Shown here: positions 12,172 through 19,898 of the stretch, piece after piece
Numbering within the stretch: the stretch's first letter is position 1
How the letters are laid out: the number at the start of each line of letters is the position of its first letter
Made by a program: the position numbers and the translations under genes
Virus record (IMG/VR): IMGVR_UViG_3300008007_000037
Span: 1 to 37,134 of that record
DNA length: 37,134 nt
Strand: one strand, 5' to 3'
DNA from: a virus
Taxonomy: Duplodnaviria > Caudoviricetes
The notes under the pieces: generated by a model
What the model was told of the DNA's origin: nothing
Database searches by the model: none
Seen by the model: only the letters and a program-made list of their open reading frames with translations

Positions 12172-12963
12172 CTAAATAGGCAAATGCACATTACTCAAAT
12201 GAGCTTTTGAAATATGCGTATAAATCATGGTAGTTTCTATGCGTGAATGACCGAGCATATTGGCTAATGTAGGTAAATCAACGCCACTTTCTATAAGCGT
12301 AGTAGCAAAGCTGTGTCTTAACTGATGAAAATGCACGTTTGATCCGATATATCGCTTTACAATTTTATTGCAACTCATAGGTGAATATTGCTCAGAAAAT
12401 TGACCTTTAAAAAGATAAATCGTTGGTCTGTATTGTTTGTAGTATTCACGCAAAACAAGCAACACGTTTTCGCTCAAAGGCAGATTGCGATCTTTAAACC
12501 CTTTGCTGCACTTAATGGTTATTTCCATTCGATCACTATCTATATCAGTCAGCTTCAAATTACAAACTTCACTTACTCTCAATCCCACAGAATTACCAAG
12601 CATCATAATAGCTTTATGCTTTAAATTATCACATCGATCAATACCATCAAGAATCACTTTTTTAGCAATAGCTTTTGGTAGTTTCTTATGCTTTCTAGGT
12701 CTGTAAAAAATGACTTTATTATACTTTTTACCCAATACAGATTGGTAAAAAAACTTCAATGCATTCACCACTTGGTTTTGGTGCGACTGCGATTTATACT
12801 GATAGTTTTCAATGTATTTCTGAAACTCGTCAGCGCTTACTCTGTTTGCAGGTTTATCTAATTGATGCAAATATTGATTTATAAAATGCAGATATATCTT
12901 TTGCGTGTTTTTGGCGTAACCAAGCAGCCGCATTTTCTGCTCTGAACTTTGGTAAAAATCCAT
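12172..12963 (-). CDS. Tyrosine recombinase (XerD/integron-integrase-like, about 263 aa) adjacent to the cassette array
   Basis: GLRVSEV (R), SKGFKDR (K), HQLRHSFAT (HxxR), LGHSRIETTMIYTH (H, Y); SAM-like N-terminal domain; start taken at ATG 12963. Confidence 0.93.
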   Translation of the reverse strand: MDFYQSSEQKMRLLGYAKNTQKIYLHFINQYLHQLDKPANRVSADEFQKYIENYQYKSQSHQNQVVNALKFFYQSVLGKKYNKVIFYRPRKHKKLPKAIAKKVILDGIDRCDNLKHKAIMMLGNSVGLRVSEVCNLKLTDIDSDRMEITIKCSKGFKDRNLPLSENVLLVLREYYKQYRPTIYLFKGQFSEQYSPMSCNKIVKRYIGSNVHFHQLRHSFATTLIESGVDLPTLANMLGHSRIETTMIYTHISKAHLSNVHLPI

Positions 12964-13012
12964 AGTGTAGGTATTGTATTTATTGGGGTGTTGTTTATTT
13001 TGACGGTTGTAG
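12964..13012 (+). other. attI-like primary recombination site (G|TT at 13006-13008)
   Basis: First cassette starts with GTTGTAGG here with no preceding hairpin arm, directly upstream of the recombinase start. Confidence 0.6.
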
Positions 13013-13024
13013 GTAATAAGCCTA

Positions 13025-13201
13025 CTAACATTCTGCATAAGTCCAAGTTTCCATATTTTCACCTTGTGCTTTTCCTTTCCAAGAAAACCTGTCGAATCCT
13101 TTGTGTCTTACACTTATCCATTTATGCATCCAATCACCGTTATCACGTTGATAATTCTGTCCTATCAATTTTCTGTTTTTATCAAAAATATTCTGTCTCA
13201 T
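13025..13201 (-). CDS. Cassette 1 hypothetical protein (58 aa, not in ORF track)
   Basis: MRQNIFDKNRKLIGQNYQRDNGDWMHKWISVRHKGFDRFSWKGKAQGENMETWTYAEC*; fills the cassette body. Confidence 0.7.
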   Translation of the reverse strand: MRQNIFDKNRKLIGQNYQRDNGDWMHKWISVRHKGFDRFSWKGKAQGENMETWTYAEC

Positions 13202-13241
13202 AAGTCAAGTTTTTGAGTTTAAAATCCGTAGGCTTACATAC

Positions 13242-13367
13242 CTACAACAATAAATATGAAGTAATAAGGCAAGTCCGTTGACTCGGACGATTTTTGTATA
13301 AGCAGTTATCAACTGCGGTATCTCATTTATTTTATTTGCCTTACTACTCATATTATTAACGTTGTGG
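13242..13367 (+). repeat. attC-like site 1
   Basis: AAC 13246; arms AATATGAAGTAATAAGGCAA / TTGCCTTACTACTCATATT; GTT 13361. Confidence 0.85.
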
Positions 13368-13376
13368 TGCATTTGC

Positions 13377-13598
13377 CTACGCACCTCTTAAAATAGCCTT
13401 TCTGTTTTCAATATCTACTTCAAATTCAATTCCACAGTCACATTTACAAGGTGAGTGCCTGTTTACATTTGCCATTACATCATCAGGGCAATTTTCAAGT
13501 GTATATACTTCTAAAAAGCAATCACCACTTTTGCTTTGAAATTCCCTTTCTTCCCCACAATTAGGGCAGTTTACCATTACAGAATCATACATTCCCAT
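13377..13598 (-). CDS. Cassette 2 protein, Zn-ribbon-like
   Basis: MGMYD...CPNCG...FQSKSGDC...CDCG. Confidence 0.8.
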   Translation of the reverse strand: MGMYDSVMVNCPNCGEEREFQSKSGDCFLEVYTLENCPDDVMANVNRHSPCKCDCGIEFEVDIENRKAILRGA

Positions 13599-13612
13599 CG
13601 CTCAAAAACGCA

Positions 13613-13743
13613 CCACAACAATGTATAACAGCAATAGCGGTTGCGGTGCTTAATTTTAGCACTATTGCTTTCAATTAATATATGTTTTAACTCAATCATT
13701 CGTGCTTCTTAATCCGCTACTGCGGTTATACTCTCCGTTGTGC
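13613..13743 (+). repeat. attC-like site 2
   Basis: AAC 13617; arms GTATAACAGCAATAGCGG / CCGCTACTGCGGTTATAC; GTT 13737. Confidence 0.85.
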
Positions 13744-13758
13744 TTCATTAAAACGAAA

Positions 13759-14206
13759 GCACAACATGCAATATAAAACATGCTTATTGCTGTGCTTCGT
13801 TTCAACGTCTGTGCTATTAGGAAGGGAAATAATAATGCCTTCCCACGCTCAACTACTTCTTAATTTCAGGCCAGTTCCATTGTCCAGCTTCTTCACCTTT
13901 CAATGCACTTGTAACCCAAAAACTACCCTCACCATCATTTTGCACATTTAAGTTGATAGCTGCTTCTTCAGTATCTCCCCAAACTGCCACTACAATAGCG
14001 GGTAGTTTTTCTTGAACATTGCAGTTTGACGCATCTTCCATACGCTTCTGCTCTTCTTTTGTGGTGTTATAAATAACCACTCTTCCAATTGTTGGTAACA
14101 TAATAAATATGGGTTTTACAAAGCCCGCCCAAGGCATTATTATTTTTGTTCTTCGTAGCAAGGTCAGTGCTATATTCCGCACGTTTCATATTGCTGTACG
14201 TTGGCA
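13759..14206 (+). repeat. attC-like site 3, expanded (gene inside loop)
   Basis: AAC 13763; arms GCAATATAAAACATGC (13768) / GCACGTTTCATATTGC (14179); GTT 14200. Confidence 0.8.
13853..14101 (-). CDS. Hypothetical protein (82 aa) nested in attC3
   Basis: MLPTIGRVVIY...LPAIVVAVW...WNWPEIKK; start reassigned to ATG 14101. Confidence 0.8.
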   Translation of the reverse strand: MLPTIGRVVIYNTTKEEQKRMEDASNCNVQEKLPAIVVAVWGDTEEAAINLNVQNDGEGSFWVTSALKGEEAGQWNWPEIKK

Positions 14207-14210
14207 GCAA

Positions 14211-14483
14211 TTAGAACAACTTACCAAACAACTTTCTGATTTCGGGCTTATGAGTAACGTCATTACCATAATCTGATACGTTATTGACGAATTCCGCTAT
14301 ATTTTCCTTATCAATAGTTCCAGTCGATTCGACTATTGCGAAATGTCCTTGAATGGCCTGATCTTCCCATTCCCAAGCTATATAAGCCCGAAATTGTCCA
14401 TTTTCAGGAAGCAATACAATACCCCCAATTGCTTTACCTTTTACTCTTGAGTAATCTTTTGATTTTGTTTTGACTGAATTCAT
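14211..14483 (-). CDS. Cassette 4 hypothetical protein
   Basis: ORF bounded by IR GTTGGCAGCAATTA / TAACTGCTGCCAAC. Confidence 0.8.
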   Translation of the reverse strand: MNSVKTKSKDYSRVKGKAIGGIVLLPENGQFRAYIAWEWEDQAIQGHFAIVESTGTIDKENIAEFVNNVSDYGNDVTHKPEIRKLFGKLF

Positions 14484-14502
14484 TTTCGATTGAATTAACT
14501 GC

Positions 14503-14632
14503 TGCCAACAATTGCTATAAAAACATAGGGCAGTCAGTGGTTATACAAAGTGTAGGGGTCTTTATTGTCGTCCGTGCTTATCGGACAGTTTCGGCTATCT
14601 ATGCCCTACGTTTCATAGCATAGCCGTTATAG
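14503..14632 (+). repeat. attC-like site 4
   Basis: AAC 14507; arms GCTATAAAAACATAGGGC / GCCCTACGTTTCATAGC; GTT 14626. Confidence 0.85.
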
Positions 14633-14638
14633 GTAAGG

Positions 14639-14836
14639 CTAAAAATGCTTCGGACACCATTCCCAATTTTCCTCACGAAATTGTTTAACAGGAATAGTAA
14701 CAACCGTGCATCCAACAGCGATATATTCACCATACTCTCGTTTCTCTTTTAATGTTGGTTTGTCATTTGGTTGCCCAGCCAATTTATATTTGTTTCCTTC
14801 ACACGGACATTTAAAAATTCTTACAGGTTGTTCCAT
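14639..14836 (-). CDS. Cassette 5 small Cys-containing protein
   Basis: ORF bounded by IR GTTATAGGTAAGGCT / AGCCCTACCTATAAC. Confidence 0.78.
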   Translation of the reverse strand: MEQPVRIFKCPCEGNKYKLAGQPNDKPTLKEKREYGEYIAVGCTVVTIPVKQFREENWEWCPKHF

Positions 14837-14863
14837 TTTATTTAAGTTTGTGAGAAGCCCTAC

Positions 14864-14996
14864 CTATAACAGCACATAGGCAATATGGCGGGGTTCTCGG
14901 TTAATATTAAGTTTAGTTTTTCAAATCAAGTTTAGTGCTTATAGATAGTTTTCGTTTCCAAAATCCGCCACATCGCCTATCTGCAAAACGTTATAG
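14864..14996 (+). repeat. attC-like site 5
   Basis: AAC 14868; arms GCACATAGGCAATATGGCGG / CCGCCACATCGCCTATCTGC; GTT 14990. Confidence 0.85.
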
Positions 14997-15001
14997 GGCA
15001 T

Positions 15002-15325
15002 TTACTGCAACCTTAAAGACCTAAACCAATTCAATAATCTATTTTTATTACCAAGAGAGTATCCCCATTTTCCAGTAATCAAAAAGGTTAGTGGCAGTCC
15101 TACAATCATTAATAGCATTGTGAGTAACGCAAATGGCAGAGTTAACCTTATCCAAAAACTTACAGGCTCTTTTTCTTCGTAGTAAAAATCCATCCTCAAT
15201 TCAATCAACCTATCTACCATTTCCTCGCTACTAAGTTTTGAAAGTTCAGGAAAAACCTTTTTGAATCTCGGCATATAATTAGCATATCCGTTTGACCAAG
15301 TACGTTTTAGTTTTCTATACATCAT
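15002..15325 (-). CDS. Cassette 6 membrane protein
   Basis: Hydrophobic LTLPFALLTMLLMIVGLPLTFLITG; bounded by IR GTTATAGGGCATTT / AAACGCCCTATAAC. Confidence 0.8.
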   Translation of the reverse strand: MMYRKLKRTWSNGYANYMPRFKKVFPELSKLSSEEMVDRLIELRMDFYYEEKEPVSFWIRLTLPFALLTMLLMIVGLPLTFLITGKWGYSLGNKNRLLNWFRSLRLQ

Positions 15326-15337
15326 AATAAAAACGCC

Positions 15338-15467
15338 CTATAACAAAGTGTATAGCAAATAGCCGTTATTGGGCTGTAATTAAACTATTTGCGTGTTTAT
15401 AAATTAGTTTCTTATCTCAATGGTCTGTGCATTTTATCGGCTACTTGCCATACACAAAACGCTATAA
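15338..15467 (+). repeat. attC-like site 6 (right end reads GCT, fused to attC7 arm)
   Basis: AAC 15342; arms GTGTATAGCAAATAGCCG / CGGCTACTTGCCATACAC. Confidence 0.8.
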
Positions 15468-15924
15468 GTAATGCGGGTGTCGTAGCTCGTATGAAGGTTT
15501 GTGCTATGCTTCTTTTTTTGCCAACGCACTGTAATCAATATCATCAATAAAATCGTCAACTTCACACATCATTAATTCAGCGTATTTCTGATTAATGGCT
15601 TTTGATGTTTCAGATTCGCTTTTTGATGATAATTCATAAATCAGTTCTTTCAACGCTTTTATTTGTGATGATTGCCATTCAACCATACATAGAGGACAGC
15701 TTTGAGATTCCCCATTTACATCTGTCCACATATACTCATATATGGTCTTGTTTCCGCATTCACAACTTGTGTGGTTGTCTTTGTCCTTTAGGTGTTTTGA
15801 AGTTATAGTTTCCATTTTATATTTAGTTTATGCCCACGCTCAAAAAAGAAGCGGGAGCGGTTAATACTCGTATCAAGGTCAGTTCTGTAATGCCCGCACT
15901 ACCCATAGCTGTGTTACGTTATGC
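15461..15924 (+). repeat. attC-like site 7, expanded (gene inside loop)
   Basis: Arms GCTATAAGTAATGCGGG (15461) / CCCGCACTACCCATAGC (15893); GTT 15918. Confidence 0.75.
15504..15815 (-). CDS. Zn-finger-like hypothetical protein nested in attC7
   Basis: CECG...CPLC followed by coiled coil. Confidence 0.8.
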   Translation of the reverse strand: METITSKHLKDKDNHTSCECGNKTIYEYMWTDVNGESQSCPLCMVEWQSSQIKALKELIYELSSKSESETSKAINQKYAELMMCEVDDFIDDIDYSALAKKEA

Positions 15925-16116
15925 GCAATTAAGTTCCGATAACTTTACCGTTAACCAATATGGCACATCATACTCTTCATCATTTCTTACATATTCTCCT
16001 TCTTCATCCCAGTCCCAAAATGGATTAGCTATATTGCAAGTCCCATCTTCAAATATTGTTTCTATATGTGTTTGTTTCCCTGCATATTCAACTGTTTGAC
16101 CTTCTTCGTATTTCAT
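15919..16116 (-). CDS. Cassette 8 small acidic protein (65 aa)
   Basis: MKYEEGQTVEY...; start reassigned to 16116; stop overlaps the GTTA core. Confidence 0.78.
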   Translation of the reverse strand: MKYEEGQTVEYAGKQTHIETIFEDGTCNIANPFWDWDEEGEYVRNDEEYDVPYWLTVKLSELNCA

Positions 16117-16134
16117 AATATTTTTAATAAAAGC

Positions 16135-16227
16135 GCATAACCCACGGTATAAACAAACCGCCAATTAGCCTTATTTGTACTATTGAACTGTCTTATAGGC
16201 GGTCAGTTCATACCGCTCTTGTTACCG
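16135..16227 (+). repeat. attC-like site 8
   Basis: AAC 16139; arms CGGTATAAACAAACCGCC / GGCGGTCAGTTCATACCG; GTT 16221. Confidence 0.82.
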
Positions 16228-16295
16228 TGCATTGCTATAAAATTAATTAGTAGCAATCTTTGAACGTCACAGCCTTAAAGAAGGAAGCAACGACA

Positions 16296-16610
16296 CGGTA
16301 ACATTTTGTATAAATAATAATTAAAAACCGAACGGGCTACCATCTTTGAAAATATCGCCAAAAATGGAGCTAAACGGATTTTCTTCCGTACACTTATATA
16401 CTATTAATTTACCAAAATCAGGGTATTTCTTTTTCAAATAATCCTCGAATTTCACCTGAGCTTCTACACTGCTATATTTGTTTTTAGCTCGCATAGTTCC
16501 GCTTTTCAAAACCGCACCATTTTTAGCTTGTGCGGTATATTTAATTAAGTAGTTCTTTTGTTGCATTTTATCATGTTTTTAATTACTATTCATACAATTT
16601 ACCGTTATCT
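16296..16610 (+). repeat. attC-like site 9, expanded (gene inside loop)
   Basis: AAC 16300; arms TTGTATAAATAATAATTAAAAAC / GTTTTTAATTACTATTCATACAA; GTT 16604. Confidence 0.8.
16321..16566 (-). CDS. Hypothetical protein nested in attC9
   Basis: 81 aa ORF; its stop codon lies in the left arm of the hairpin. Confidence 0.78.
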   Translation of the reverse strand: MQQKNYLIKYTAQAKNGAVLKSGTMRAKNKYSSVEAQVKFEDYLKKKYPDFGKLIVYKCTEENPFSSIFGDIFKDGSPFGF

Positions 16611-16805
16611 TCAAGTTTTCCCTCCACCGCGCTCTAAGGGCAACCGTACTATCCGATACTTTTCGTTTTCAAATTCTTTTTGCTTTTTTTTAGAAAAGAC
16701 GTGTTCCAGTTGATTTGCTGTCAACTCGGTAGCTTCCAAAATAGGAGATCGCGAACCAAATATTCGCGCTTCCCCTGTCTGTTTGTTTAAGAACCAGTAT
16801 GGCAT
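16611..16805 (-). CDS. Cassette 10 small protein, possibly DNA-binding
   Basis: 64 aa basic, helix-turn-helix-like middle. Confidence 0.65.
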   Translation of the reverse strand: MPYWFLNKQTGEARIFGSRSPILEATELTANQLEHVFSKKKQKEFENEKYRIVRLPLERGGGKT

Positions 16806-16811
16806 AACTGT

Positions 16812-17057
16812 TTAATTTACGGTATATTGATCAATTTGCTGCCAGTCAAATTCAGGATAAACCTTTTTGTTTTCCCTCGCTGTTACCGTTACGCTGACAT
16901 TGTTTTGCTTTGCTATTTGAATGTACTGGTCTATAAAATTTGATGACTTTTCAACGTCATTACTTGTAATGGAGCAGGAGCTTCCTATTCCTTCCAATGG
17001 CTTTGAGTAGTTGAACTCAATTCTAAATTTGTTTTTTGGGCTTCTTAATTTTGACAT
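16812..17057 (-). CDS. Cassette 10 hypothetical protein
   Basis: 81 aa ORF in a tight operon. Confidence 0.7.
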   Translation of the reverse strand: MSKLRSPKNKFRIEFNYSKPLEGIGSSCSITSNDVEKSSNFIDQYIQIAKQNNVSVTVTARENKKVYPEFDWQQIDQYTVN

Positions 17058-17065
17058 GGTATTGA

Positions 17066-17383
17066 TTATTTAGTGTTAGACATCATTCTTACTTTATCAG
17101 CTCCGAAGTAAGCAACTGCTTTAGCGTGGTTGCTTTCAGAGTAAGGCTTTGTGTAGGTTGTTCCGATTTCGCAATCAAAAGTTCCCAATCTACTTTGAGC
17201 TTCTTGAAGGTTACCCATCAAATCCATTCTTTTCAGTCCTTCGCTGATTGTGATTTTTCTAAAGTTGTTCATCAAATCAACCATGAAGTCTTTTAAGCTC
17301 ACGTTGTAAAACCCTTTGATTTTGCTGTTGTAGTAGTTTACTACTTCTTCTCTGTTGGCTTTTAAAAATTCTTGAGTTGTCAT
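17066..17383 (-). CDS. Cassette 10 hypothetical protein
   Basis: Start at ATG 17383 (MTTQEFL) downstream of a TATATTTG promoter box. Confidence 0.75.
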   Translation of the reverse strand: MTTQEFLKANREEVVNYYNSKIKGFYNVSLKDFMVDLMNNFRKITISEGLKRMDLMGNLQEAQSRLGTFDCEIGTTYTKPYSESNHAKAVAYFGADKVRMMSNTK

Positions 17384-17413
17384 TTCGTTGTCTTTTTGTT
17401 TGTTTCTATACCC

Positions 17414-17446
17414 CAAATATACAACCTATTTTGGAACTACCAAAGA
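17414..17446 (-). promoter_or_regulatory. Host-type (Bacteroidota sigma-A) promoter within cassette 10
   Basis: -7 box TATATTTG at 17421-17414 with TTTG about 20 nt upstream. Confidence 0.7.
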
Positions 17447-17507
17447 AAAAAGCAAAATATTTCAAATAATTTGTGTTTTCGTAAAGCCAACGCGCGGAAA
17501 AACCAGA

Positions 17508-17571
17508 AGATAACAGCACCTAAATCGCCATGCCCTGTGGGACACAGGCGTTTAGCTGCATCACGTTCTCT
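17508..17571 (+). repeat. attC-like site 10 (short, about 60 bp)
   Basis: AAC 17512; arms GCACCTAAATCGCC / GGCGTTTAGCTGC; GTT 17565. Confidence 0.8.
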
Positions 17572-17602
17572 GCAAGTGCTACAATCCTGCTAAAACAGAA
17601 CA

Positions 17603-17839
17603 TTATCCCTCCGAATCTTTTTCTTTTCTTTCCTCCCCCGCACTCAAAAACGAAATAGCTTTTTCAGCTACTTGCTTTTGATTTTCAATTACAGGTAGCA
17701 ACTTAGCTTTTGATGCTTCTGTCATTCGCTGATCCCCGTTCAGCATCATGTTAAGGAAGCGGATGTTGATACCCGCTTCCTTGCAAATTCCTGACTTGTT
17801 GATACCAGGCTGATCGAAAAATTCTTGGACCTCTTTCAT
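17603..17839 (-). CDS. HTH DNA-binding protein
   Basis: INKSGICKEAGINIRFLNMMLNG XRE-like HTH. Confidence 0.72.
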   Translation of the reverse strand: MKEVQEFFDQPGINKSGICKEAGINIRFLNMMLNGDQRMTEASKAKLLPVIENQKQVAEKAISFLSAGEERKEKDSEG

Positions 17840-17879
17840 CTCCCAGTTGTATTGTGTTCGGGAAGTTGTGTTGCGTTAC

Positions 17880-18068
17880 CTAAATAGCGTGTTTATCTAT
17901 TTCGGCTGCATAGTATTGTTTCACTTTTATTCCGAGCTTCTGCAATGCTAATTGTCCGCAACTCATACCGTCAAACCGCGATAACACGGTAATTCCTTCG
18001 GCTTCTGAAAAGCCGTTTTTGCCACCGCTTGAATTGATAATTATAATGTCGTATTCGTGCAAATTCAT
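17880..18068 (-). pseudogene. Chimeric remnant: PAPS-reductase-like N-terminus fused to a C5 DNA methyltransferase motif I fragment
   Basis: YDIIIINSSGGK then ITVLSRFDGMSCGQLAL...YYAAEIDKHAI*. Confidence 0.7.
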
Positions 18069-18150
18069 AATAGTGAAAACTATTTATTATTTGATTCCTA
18101 TTTTTTACTGTTTACCCCATAAAGTAAGCCAAAATGTGGCTTTTTACGAA

Positions 18151-18457
18151 TGTCGGATGAACATTGTGCTAAAATACACTTAAACAATTGATTTACATAT
18201 ACTTTAACATTAAAAACCAGCCGACAAAATCCGACATGTACAAACTTAAACAATTGTTTAACAGTGTTTTGCGCTTGTCGCGTTCCGACAAATTTTGTCG
18301 GAAATTTCCGACAAAATTTGTCGGATTTGTCGGACGTTAATTTACTGATTTTCAATTTAATTGATGTTAATTTGTCGGATTTTGTCGGCTGCATTTCGTT
18401 GTTTTTTGTAGGTTTTACGGGCTTTTCAGGCGTTTTTATGCGTTTTTCAATCCGACA
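18151..18457. repeat. Cluster of 11 CCGACA/TGTCGG hexamers; candidate replication origin
   Basis: Copies at 18151, 18221, 18231, 18285, 18296, 18308, 18319, 18328, 18373, 18383, 18452 in AT-rich DNA next to the replication gene. Confidence 0.75.
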
Positions 18458-18506
18458 TTCGGTATTTGTAACATTTTAATATTTGAACTTTGGATTGCTA
18501 AATGCA

Positions 18507-19898
18507 TTATTCATTCTTTGCTCCAAACACTTTTGGATAGTCTTGAATGGCTTTTTTCACTAAGCGCTCTGCACGCTTCTCTTTGGCGTTATCTGTGATT
18601 TTTACACGCTCATAGAGCTTTTCTCCGATCATGGCATAGCTATATCCAGCCTTTACCATCGATGCCAGGCGCAGCACTTCTGCTGGTGCTACTACGGTGG
18701 TATTTACACGCTCATATACTGTGGCGGCACTCTCGTAGAAATAGTCTGCAAGCTGCAGCGCTCTATCCATGGTTTGCTCACTTATTTCGCCATCTTCAAA
18801 CGCATGGTGGTTATAGGCTAAATCACTCACGTGGAGTATTCCTGCAAATCTTCTGGCATATTCGCTTATTTTACCCAATATACCTGAGTGTATTTCCATA
18901 TCACGCACATCGCGCATGTGGTTTATTTTACTAATGCGCATTCTGCGCCACGTTTCCAGTGCTTTTGATGCTCGCCTATCCATAGTAAGCATGCGCGGAT
19001 CATCATATTCATTTTCTACATAAAGTGCCTTGTAAAGTTGCTCTATACGTTTGGTGTGTATTTGCTCTAACTCTTCTTCAAAAACATAGCTGCTGTCTGG
19101 TTGGGCTATTTTCACCTTTTCTGGCACCGCAAATAGCAGTCTGAAAATGAAACCAGTGGTATCTCTGTCATTTTTAAAGAGCTTGTACATAATAGTGGGC
19201 TGAATACCACCAACTACATTGATGAATGGTCTAGGAATAGAGAATTTCTCCTTTCCGGATCTGATACCGGAATACGGTCTGCAGTTCCAAGCTGACAAAT
19301 AAAACTGCTCATCTGTGCCCTCTTTTCGGCTGAGCTGGTTCATACCGTTGATCCACTCCAATATTTCGTCTGCTATCTTAGTTACGCCTTTTGGATTGTC
19401 TGGCATCACACTTCTTACCAAGGTGCTAATGTGCACATCGCGCACCACGGCTGTCATCAATCGCTCATATTTCAAGTCTTCACGCGATAAATTATCATCA
19501 TCTTGCTTTTCTTTCCACTGGCGATCATACTTTTCTTGAATGCTATACAGTGGCTTCAAAATCATATCCATTGCCAATGATTTACCAGAGCTTGAAATAC
19601 CCTCTAAACAACCCCAAATTGGTAAATAGGTTAAGTTTTGGCTCTGCTTCACCGCGTATGATGTGCCTATGGCGCTGCTATAAGCTGTAAGCATGCTCAA
19701 TCCTACATAAGCGCGTGGTAAATCATAATGCTCAATCAAGGCTTGCATATATGGCTGTATAGCTTTGTGAAACACATCTATCGGAAATACATTTTCGAGC
19801 TGGCGCTTTTCAAGCTCAGCGGCTAAATCTTGTGTGCTGATGGTTGCGGCTGCGTTGCTGCCTTTAAAATGGTCTTGTATGTTTATTACAGTATTCAC
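18507..19898 (-). CDS. DUF3987/YfjI-like P-loop ATPase (replication helicase-like)
   Basis: FPIDVF N-terminus, Walker A GISSSGKS, Walker B IADEI, VVGGIQP, GFIFRLLF. Confidence 0.8.
   Translation of the reverse strand: MNTVINIQDHFKGSNAAATISTQDLAAELEKRQLENVFPIDVFHKAIQPYMQALIEHYDLPRAYVGLSMLTAYSSAIGTSYAVKQSQNLTYLPIWGCLEGISSSGKSLAMDMILKPLYSIQEKYDRQWKEKQDDDNLSREDLKYERLMTAVVRDVHISTLVRSVMPDNPKGVTKIADEILEWINGMNQLSRKEGTDEQFYLSAWNCRPYSGIRSGKEKFSIPRPFINVVGGIQPTIMYKLFKNDRDTTGFIFRLLFAVPEKVKIAQPDSSYVFEEELEQIHTKRIEQLYKALYVENEYDDPRMLTMDRRASKALETWRRMRISKINHMRDVRDMEIHSGILGKISEYARRFAGILHVSDLAYNHHAFEDGEISEQTMDRALQLADYFYESAATVYERVNTTVVAPAEVLRLASMVKAGYSYAMIGEKLYERVKITDNAKEKRAERLVKKAIQDYPKVFGAKNE

Follow-up and report, generated by a model that had tools for sequence, protein, structure and literature searches.

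Whole genes inside the terminal loops of attC-like hairpins in an integron-like array of a Bacteroidota-type phage

Introduction

In integrons, the gene of a cassette lies between recombination sites, and the terminal structure of an attC site is short and non-coding. How cassettes are made is a long-standing open question. Published attC sites measure 57-141 bp (PMC5371416), the variable terminal structures (VTSs) of class 1 attC sites are given as 3-100 nt (PMC7439510), and attC detection models assume VTSs of 20-100 nt (PMC4889954). The IntegronFinder 2.0 report describes complete integrons as nearly absent in Bacteroidetes (PMC9024848). Arrays of attC sites also occur in phages, and IntI1 recombined 5/6 tested sites of such phage-borne arrays (Qi et al. 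2023, PMC9892861).

Here, we analysed a window of 37,134 nucleotides from a Bacteroidota-type phage, in which an IntI-like recombinase adjoins 10 attC-like hairpins (Table 1). The array shares with integrons the RYYYAAC ... GTTRRRY site ends, paired R and L boxes with an unpaired spacer, the bottom-strand bias, one gene per cassette, R-box complementarity across the body and the adjacent tyrosine recombinase. Unlike integrons, it has no detected attI and its genes run antisense to the top strand; with an integrase lacking the IntI-specific insert and sites lacking conserved extrahelical bases, it is integron-like and not a canonical integron.

Results

Table 1. Features of the array in the window (ordinary, gene between sites; loop-loaded, gene inside the hairpin)
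Feature	Position	Strand	Description
Recombinase	12172..12963	-	IntI-like tyrosine recombinase, 263 aa from ATG 12963; catalytic motifs present; Pfam Phage_integrase + Phage_int_SAM_4
Left array end	13006..13015	+	GTT box complementary to site 1 left box; differs from chromosomal relatives' attI consensus
Site 1	13246..13363	+	ordinary attC-like hairpin
Site 2	13617..13739	+	ordinary attC-like hairpin
Site 3 body	13737..13765	+	empty cassette body; 29-nt hairpin of 9-bp R-box stem and 11-nt closing cap
Site 3	13763..14202	+	loop-loaded hairpin, 440 nt from AAC to GTT; outer stems 13768-13783 / 14179-14194; inner arms 13827-13841 / 14131-14145
ORF3	13853..14101	-	site 3 cargo, 82 aa; phrog_2293-like, no named function
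Body gene	14211..14483	-	90 aa
Site 4	14507..14628	+	ordinary
Body gene	14639..14836	-	65 aa
Site 5	14868..14992	+	ordinary
Body gene	15002..15325	-	107 aa; phrog_36118
Site 6	15342..15460	+	GTT end lost through fusion with site 7
Site 7	15461..15920	+	loop-loaded hairpin, 460 nt, without empty body and left AAC; stems 15461-15477 / 15893-15909; inner arms 15508-15518 / 15842-15852
ORF7	15504..15815	-	site 7 cargo, 103 aa; two Cys pairs; last codons encoded by inner arm
Body gene	15919..16116	-	65 aa
Site 8	16139..16223	+	85-nt class
Site 9 body	16221..16302	+	82 nt; no ORF of at least 35 aa; 9-bp R-box stem
Site 9	16300..16606	+	loop-loaded hairpin, 307 nt; arms 16306-16328 / 16575-16597
ORF9	16321..16566	-	site 9 cargo, 81 aa
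Site 10	17512..17567	+	56-nt hairpin

The integrase scored 143.6 bits against TIGR02249, below the cut-off of 265, and it lacks the integron-specific insert of the catalytic domain, residues 181-260 of IntI4 (2a3v) standing opposite only query residues 175-206 in the alignment. Its relatives (33-40% aa) had attC-like sites in 37/80 chromosomal loci, with 118 of the 119 sites lying 3′ of the integrase; the attI consensus of these chromosomal relatives, ATATAAC-NN-GTT, was exact in 9/10 loci listed. The window held no match to it with one mismatch allowed, and the half-site-like end at 13006 differs from it. A search of viral contigs with the integrase returned 42 loci, with identity at 23-36% for almost all of them. 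We also considered the integrase itself as a loop-loaded cassette and rejected this, as no matching arm lies past its stop.

Sites 3, 7 and 9 were each bridged without differences by contigs of other public runs, so that mis-assembly is unlikely. Contigs of 8 public runs contained no cassette-skipping joint, which is uninformative on activity since contigs drop rare variants. Near-identical copies of site 5 in other contigs diverge just past the GTT (loose ends 14992-14994). Rfam gave no match in 12900-18600, and none in loops from nine related loci. The loops accompanying empty bodies include GC-richer ones.

The first-pass annotation had paired the arms of sites 3, 7 and 9, placed a whole ORF inside each hairpin and called the bodies before sites 3 and 9 empty. 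The paired arms were found again, and all three ORFs lie on the minus strand within the hairpins, with the refinement that at sites 7 and 9 the stop codon of the gene overlaps an arm. Both bodies are indeed gene-free, but that of site 3 is itself a small hairpin and that of site 9 is 82 nt long. With whole ORFs included, all three sites fall outside the published attC length range and its non-coding VTSs. The stems of sites 3 and 9 are of ordinary quality, with scores of 35 and 39, respectively, against 34-44 for six ordinary sites. Sites 3 and 9 carry AAC and GTT triplets in their R-box ends and have unpaired central spacers of 5/2 and 6/3, respectively. Site 7 has lost one end: it adjoins site 6 in a fusion at 15460/15461, without its body and left AAC, and is probably immobilised, while its relatives L394 and L395 keep both ends.

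Homologues of the cargo genes were found at 6 loci for ORF3 and 3 loci for ORF9 (one identical to the window in each case), and as 26 proteins at 54-91% for ORF7. Around the ORF3 (56% aa) and ORF9 (65% aa) homologues, the arms and the empty body were kept beside different neighbours, and the arms had changed in sequence with pairing retained. The nearest look-alike of ORF9 is an unnamed viral cluster (score 0.88), which serves as a lead only. Among cultured phage records, blastn gave no match for the three units, and tblastn none for ORF3 and one weak match for ORF9. No transposase or reverse transcriptase family was present among the three loop genes of the window and 24 other loop genes. The cargo of this gene-shuffling system includes DNA methyltransferases and a TET-associated glycosyltransferase.

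Empty or alternative alleles were sought as a test of the earlier reading that genes sit inside the site, and both exist. With the right arm of site 3 as the query and any loop size allowed, the distinct sites having both arms numbered 65: lengths were 119-126 nt for 52 short sites and 324-981 nt for the other 13, termed long. A loop ORF together with an empty body was present in 13/13 long and 0/52 short sites (p 6e-14), no short site having an empty body at all. The long alleles carried 12 gene families, including the window's own; across other phages and metagenome contigs, these arms enclose different genes or none. Three unresolved site 3 alleles combine a long-type arm with a filled body. 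The site 7 arm family likewise comprises 2 short alleles and 2 long alleles with other genes and the cap intact. Moreover, five gene families occupy the loop position in one locus and the body position in another. Two loci indicate that other kinds of recombination also act, because one (L288) joins arms from two families and the other (L283) has lost its outer left arm.

We then examined the unit borders. Neighbours switch at AAC triplets: among long site 3 alleles, mean identity rose from 0.36 before the first AAC to 0.72 after it (n=10) and fell from 0.80 to 0.31 across the last AAC (n=12). On the predicted side, the sites next to 47 empty bodies were loop-loaded in 25 cases and short in 7, while on the control side they were loop-loaded in 4 and short in 26 (p 2.5e-7 for the side difference). 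An empty body accompanied 11/224 other sites, and 6/55 loop-loaded sites had none by the test used. The box after the body complemented the site's own right box at 4/4 bases in 39/49 cases, a partly selected set, and the box before the site did so in 3/55. Own arms paired in 34/47 sites and swapped arms in 2/141, which contradicts the reading of the arms as halves of separate sites. Inner inverted repeats of at least 12 nt were found in 14/20 own pairs and 5/80 swapped pairs; in the inner-arm pattern search, 2/5 matches are by chance. A gene start lies inside the loop of 54/170 ordinary sites as well. Together, collapsed alleles, alternative alleles and arm-specific pairing back the second cargo position inside the site that the first-pass annotation had put forward.

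Several further ideas were dropped. By the pattern used, a direct-repeat module flanked the loop genes in only 2/55 sites and is not a general rule, and the cap as a mere join of the usual body start and end motifs was weak at best (24/219 starts, 9/228 ends). An inside-out flip through L-box recombination does not fit the spacer polarity of loop-loaded sites, which equals that of ordinary sites; as the catalogue was pre-filtered on spacer polarity, this says only that 55 such sites exist.

Next, we compared the strands. G-T pairs exceeded A-C pairs on the bottom strand by 243:12 in chromosomes, 347:22 at ordinary phage sites and 76:1 at loop-loaded sites, with wobble counts inflated by a scoring that favours G-T pairs. 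In chromosomes the top strand carried the genes (46/47), and in phage loci the bottom strand did (72/73), so the pairing-strand bias is independent of the direction of transcription. The folded strand is thus non-coding in chromosomes and coding in phages, a pattern suggestive of folding at the DNA level. Predicted folds were more stable on the bottom than on the top strand for site 3 (-53.0 vs -42.3 kcal/mol) and site 9 (-34.9 vs -28.3 kcal/mol), and predicted bottom-strand L-box pairing was 0.80, 0.87 and 0.94 for sites 3, 7 and 9. Predicted AAC/GTT pairing was 0.01 for isolated site 9, 0.67 for site 3 and 0.17 for ordinary site 4. No conserved extrahelical bases, typically G and T, were seen, and the L stems of sites 3, 7 and 9 have no bulge; ungapped 10/10 pairing occurred in 51/55 loop-loaded and 157/206 ordinary sites, counts that are raised by a scoring which penalises bulges and favours ungapped stems.

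Discussion

We propose, with a probability of roughly 0.7, that sites 3, 7 and 9 are Bacteroidota integron-like cassettes which hold their gene in the attC-like terminal loop and leave the usual body empty, and that the IntI-like recombinase likely works on their folded bottom strand, cutting and rejoining at the normal AAC crossover; that such long hairpins recombine we infer from the junction patterns. Once excised, such a cassette would form a rod of single-stranded DNA closed by two end loops, either of which may take the gene, and the unused end would usually be sealed with one short cap, CGTTTTAATG on the gene strand. Loop loading may be favoured in phages because there the bottom strand is read and the loop would form the 5′ end of the cassette, which already comes with an A-rich leader and, in many cases, a start codon; on entering behind this leader, a gene would land in the loop and make the body unnecessary. 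Gene entry has likely left its trace in the inner inverted repeats of 12-23 nt on either side of many loop genes.

One alternative takes the arms as an RNA bracket, whose stem would set the gene apart as a loop in the transcript to serve RNA processing or the control of translation, with modules spread by homologous recombination like the PeSL cassettes of T4-type phages. It agrees with the folded strand being the sense strand in phages, with RNA folding that encloses all three genes in long stems, with inner arms overlapping start or stop codons and with the hybrid arms of L288. However, chromosomes show the same direction of strand bias, there on the non-coding strand, the borders fall at a fixed triplet, the own right box is complemented by the box after the body (39/49, partly selected) and not by the one before the site (3/55), and PeSLs are described as promoter-plus-terminator units (PMC2839356). 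We therefore regard it as unlikely that the bracket explains the units by itself; the arms may have an RNA role in addition to a DNA role.

It is similarly improbable, in our judgement, that these were once-active cassette sites which loop loading killed and which now travel as passengers between flanking ordinary sites or are moved by general recombination. A VTS-length penalty is known (PMC8946536, PMC5371416), long VTSs being reported to lower recombination by up to 4 logs in replicative conditions (PMC8946536); the low predicted R-box pairing of site 9 and the broken state of site 7 point the same way. Under single-stranded delivery, long VTSs are reported to recombine well (PMC8946536), in line with the proposal above. 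Against dead passengers, both neighbours differ exactly at the unit's own AAC triplets in 10-12 long alleles, and arm pairing is maintained across divergent homologues. A further reading, in which one site's left half became joined to another's right half with the former body gene trapped between, would find a model in the hybrid L288, in same-family arms similar enough for cross-pairing and in long spanning calls of this kind in homogeneous chromosomal arrays, yet it is largely refuted and very improbable: swapped arms pair in 2/141, and it predicts neither the empty capped body of 13/13 long alleles nor the inner inverted repeats that are commoner in own than in swapped pairs.

Cassettes with loop-borne genes break both the rule that puts the gene between sites and the one that keeps the terminal structure short and non-coding. 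A detection model with a VTS of 20-100 nt would miss such sites, and since complete integrons are also nearly absent from Bacteroidetes in the survey cited above, a common gene-shuffling system of Bacteroidota phages seems to go uncounted. Natural pairs of collapsed and loaded sites sharing the same arms allow direct tests of the size limit of hairpin recombination and of how cassettes arise, and suggest as a tool a site with its payload built in. More speculatively, and on balance doubtfully, Bacteroidota and their phages might have a sister system of integrons, as yet uncatalogued, whose cassettes are single-stranded rods with two ports: a dedicated building step would place a gene or small structured RNA in one apex or the other, and the opposite apex would be sealed by a fixed cap. 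If so, loop-loaded cassettes would preserve footprints of cassette making (cap, inner inverted repeats, junction motif), and a fold-recognising recombinase without the IntI insert would be able to move kilobase loops.

In the literature searched, which was mainly open-access and covered main texts, no description of genes within attC loops was found. Compared with published attC sites, the loop-loaded ones of the window are long, at 307-460 bp, and relatives reach 981, with a gene inside. The phage-borne integrons and CALINs of Qi et al. (2023, PMC9892861) share attC arrays in phages, including a Polaribacter phage, and DNA methyltransferase cargo; the ORFs in the accessible text of that paper lie between sites, with none described inside a site. 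Coding DNA within attC is also known from IS1111-attC elements and group IIC-attC introns, which are described as selfish, with their own transposase or reverse transcriptase, and inserted near one site end (PMC3001079), whereas the window's cargo consists of unrelated phage genes at the apex with both arms intact. Synthetic attC sites in coding sequences likewise overlap attC structure with coding, but are engineered, with VTSs of 3-21 nt and the site inside the gene, the reverse of the nesting seen here (PMC7439510). In the PeSL cassettes of T4-type phages, accessory phage genes are likewise shuffled by stem-loop modules, which yield mini-circles; these cassettes are promoter-terminator units for which the available text names no fixed crossover triplet or dedicated recombinase (PMC2839356).

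Genes in the loops of sites 3, 7 and 9

The window is a single 37-kb contig carrying a terminase (phrog_2), a lysozyme and nearly all of its genes on the minus strand, and was therefore taken to be a phage or prophage. Since relatives of its recombinase were almost all found in Bacteroidota genomes, the host is likely a member of Bacteroidota. Spacer asymmetry and folding energy identified the plus strand as the top strand of the attC-like sites, so that the minus-strand genes are antisense to them. The recombinase sits where a last cassette gene would, as its start codon lies so close to the array end; the array is 5′ of the recombinase in the window and 3′ of it in chromosomes.

Features of the window and their coordinates
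Feature	Position	Strand	Remark
Recombinase gene	12172-12963		followed by the array
Ten hairpins with AAC...GTT ends	between 13246 and 17567		beyond the recombinase gene
Array end to recombinase start codon	13006-12963	gene strand	about 43 nt
TGAGCGTGGG-like motif	13595-13604, 13842-13851, 15833-15842	gene strand	where genes meet arms; precedes some starts, follows some stops
ORF3	13853-14101	minus	loop of site 3
Inner arm of site 3 with in-frame ATG	14101-14145		could add a 13-residue leader
ORF7	15504-15815	minus	loop of site 7
ORF9	16321-16566	minus	loop of site 9
62-aa ORF	17880-18068		apparently truncated; presumably resembles the start of a DNA methyltransferase
GTCGGA repeats around a perfect 42-nt palindrome	18206-18403 (palindrome 18284-18325)		adjoins DUF3987 gene; likely replication origin

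The three arm pairs with enclosed ORFs reported in the first-pass annotation were confirmed, and homology identifies ORF3, ORF7 and ORF9 as real genes. The bodies (the usual gene slots between sites) before sites 3 and 9 had also been called empty. The body at site 3 is empty and 29 nt long; that at site 9 is gene-free and 82 nt long, and each of its ends is one half of the cap, the short fixed sequence that closes an empty body between its R-box arms. Site 7 is fused to site 6, with its body and left AAC lost. Hairpin scores of sites 3 and 9 were comparable to those of ordinary sites. Contigs of other runs spanned all three sites without change (these runs may belong to one campaign, and give independent support for the assembly alone). 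The putative 13-residue leader of site 3 precedes another gene in the related locus L272, but in L300 it runs into a stop.

Collapsed and alternative alleles of the same arms

A metagenome search with the right arm of site 3, which set no condition for loop or body, matched at least 119 loci. Among the matches listed, 65 distinct sites had both arms resolved and 47 matches did not, many for little upstream DNA. Both empty and alternative alleles, whose absence the first-pass annotation would have taken as refutation, were found: among these listed matches, 52/65 sites were 119-126 nt long, with a loop lacking a 35-aa ORF and no empty body, and 13/65 were 324-981 nt long, all with an ORF in the loop and a capped, empty body. 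The 13 long alleles carried 12 gene families, and one was identical to the window. The listed matches without both arms resolved included 15 with a capped empty body, one (L386) with the cap inverted between the R-box arms of its empty body, and three with a long-type arm and a filled body, which are possibly doubly loaded. The site 7 arm matched six viral loci: one by chance, one that was the window's own allele unchanged, and two short and two long alleles, the latter holding other genes (91 and 115 aa) with the cap intact. In L013, the outer arms of site 3 enclose another gene. Separately, L288 carries a hybrid site with arms from two families, and the unit in L283 has lost its outer left arm.

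Pairing of the arms and recurrence of loop-loaded sites

The first-pass annotation had considered that the paired arms might be halves of separate degenerate sites. The empty-body pattern fetched 128 loci with 118 distinct matches; 47 were dropped for short flanks, and 47 of the remaining 71 were kept, with R-box complementarity of 8-9 of 9. A site's own right arm found its partner in 34/47 cases, versus 2/141 for arms swapped between loci, indicating that the arms are true partners. The site expected to own the empty body was loop-loaded (gene in the terminal loop) in 25 of the 47; 7 were short, 2 were long but had no ORF filling the loop, and 13 were without clear class; for the site on the other side, these numbers were 4, 26, 3 and 14.

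No BLAST pair was found within the 25 loop cargo proteins of these loci, and a Pfam scan of 24 placed three above cut-offs (C5 DNA methylase, MT-A70 and TAGT). Across all phage and metagenome loci, which were partly selected by the cap, 55/279 sites were loop-loaded, 49/55 of them with an empty body, and the 58 loop proteins, of which the window contributed three, formed 54 families.

Seven loci (L070, L075, L104, L122, L142, L147 and L189) have 115-126-nt sites without a loop ORF before empty bodies. Their loops are GC-richer (0.40-0.49 versus an ordinary mean of 0.32, sd 0.10), and some contain a tRNA T-loop-like GGTTCGA; the scanned loops gave no Rfam or ARAGORN match, and small-RNA cargo is possible. 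Ordinary sites of phage loci (L064-L191) group near 45, 85 and 123 nt, in steps of about 40 nt.

Probable movement as units and a proposed mechanism

Long site 3 alleles had an identity of 0.36 before the first AAC and 0.72 after it, and of 0.80 before the last AAC and 0.31 after it. Homologues of ORF3 (L003) and ORF9 (L009) kept arms and empty body among different neighbours, and L002 has an ORF3 homologue without a hairpin. Five gene families were found in both positions, inside the loop at one locus and in the body at a second (L089/L104, 70%; L338/L345, 63%; L320/L067, 67%; L303/L089, 59%; L394/L085, 40%).

The unit, running from the first AAC to the AAC that follows the cap, would most likely be excised and inserted via the folded bottom strand, its folded circle forming a rod with two loops. 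The gene would sit at the R end in ordinary cassettes and at the L end in loop-loaded ones. Phages read the bottom strand, which puts the loop at the front of the transcript. The gene start already lies inside the loop in 54/170 ordinary sites. The cap also closes 7/8 listed, unselected sites below 52 nt (one with an extra T) and 2/6 sites below 60 nt in a stricter catalogue. Inner inverted repeats of at least 12 nt bracket loop genes in 14/20 own arm pairs versus 5/80 swapped ones, and a GCGTGG-like motif follows 11/55 loop genes versus 2/56 body genes.

Chromosomal relatives

Bacteroidota chromosomes, including Flavobacteriaceae (L192-L271), carry attC-like arrays 3′ of a related recombinase (118/119 sites). 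These sites are 110-225 nt long, with an empty body in 0/126 (37 of 80 loci). Seven calls reached at least 230 nt; five span two sites, as nearer partners exist, and the other two are of uncertain pairing. Eight sites of 150-230 nt have a predicted ORF of at least 40 aa on the non-coding strand. Genes lie on the top strand in chromosomes (46/47) and on the bottom strand in phage loci (72/73). In both, G-T pairs nevertheless favour the bottom strand, in a ratio inflated by our own pairing score. As this bias stays on the bottom strand despite the opposite gene strands, a folded DNA substrate fits the sites better than an RNA structure.

Comparison with integrons

The window recombinase has the catalytic motifs, but at the position of the integron insert it falls short of IntI4 by about 48 residues, and it scores below the TIGR02249 cut-off. 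The insert reportedly contacts extrahelical bases (MacDonald 2006), and a joint loss of both would be consistent; no conserved extrahelical base was found in sites of the phage and metagenome catalogue. The attI-like motif ATATAAC-NN-GTT, common to the chromosomal relatives, had no match in the window. The system is thus predicted to work in the manner of an integron, without being classed among integrons. According to PMC8138268, the insert is incompletely conserved in the integron-like subgroup, yet essential for integron function. Genes inside attC loops were not described in the accessible portions of the literature searched (including PMC9892861, PMC5371416, PMC8946536, PMC7439510 and PMC4889954), nor in those of PMC9024848, PMC3001079, PMC8138268, PMC6393395, PMC12614218 and PMC2839356. 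In this integron-like system, the loop-loaded design, undescribed in that literature, is a real and recurrent variant form of integron cassette.
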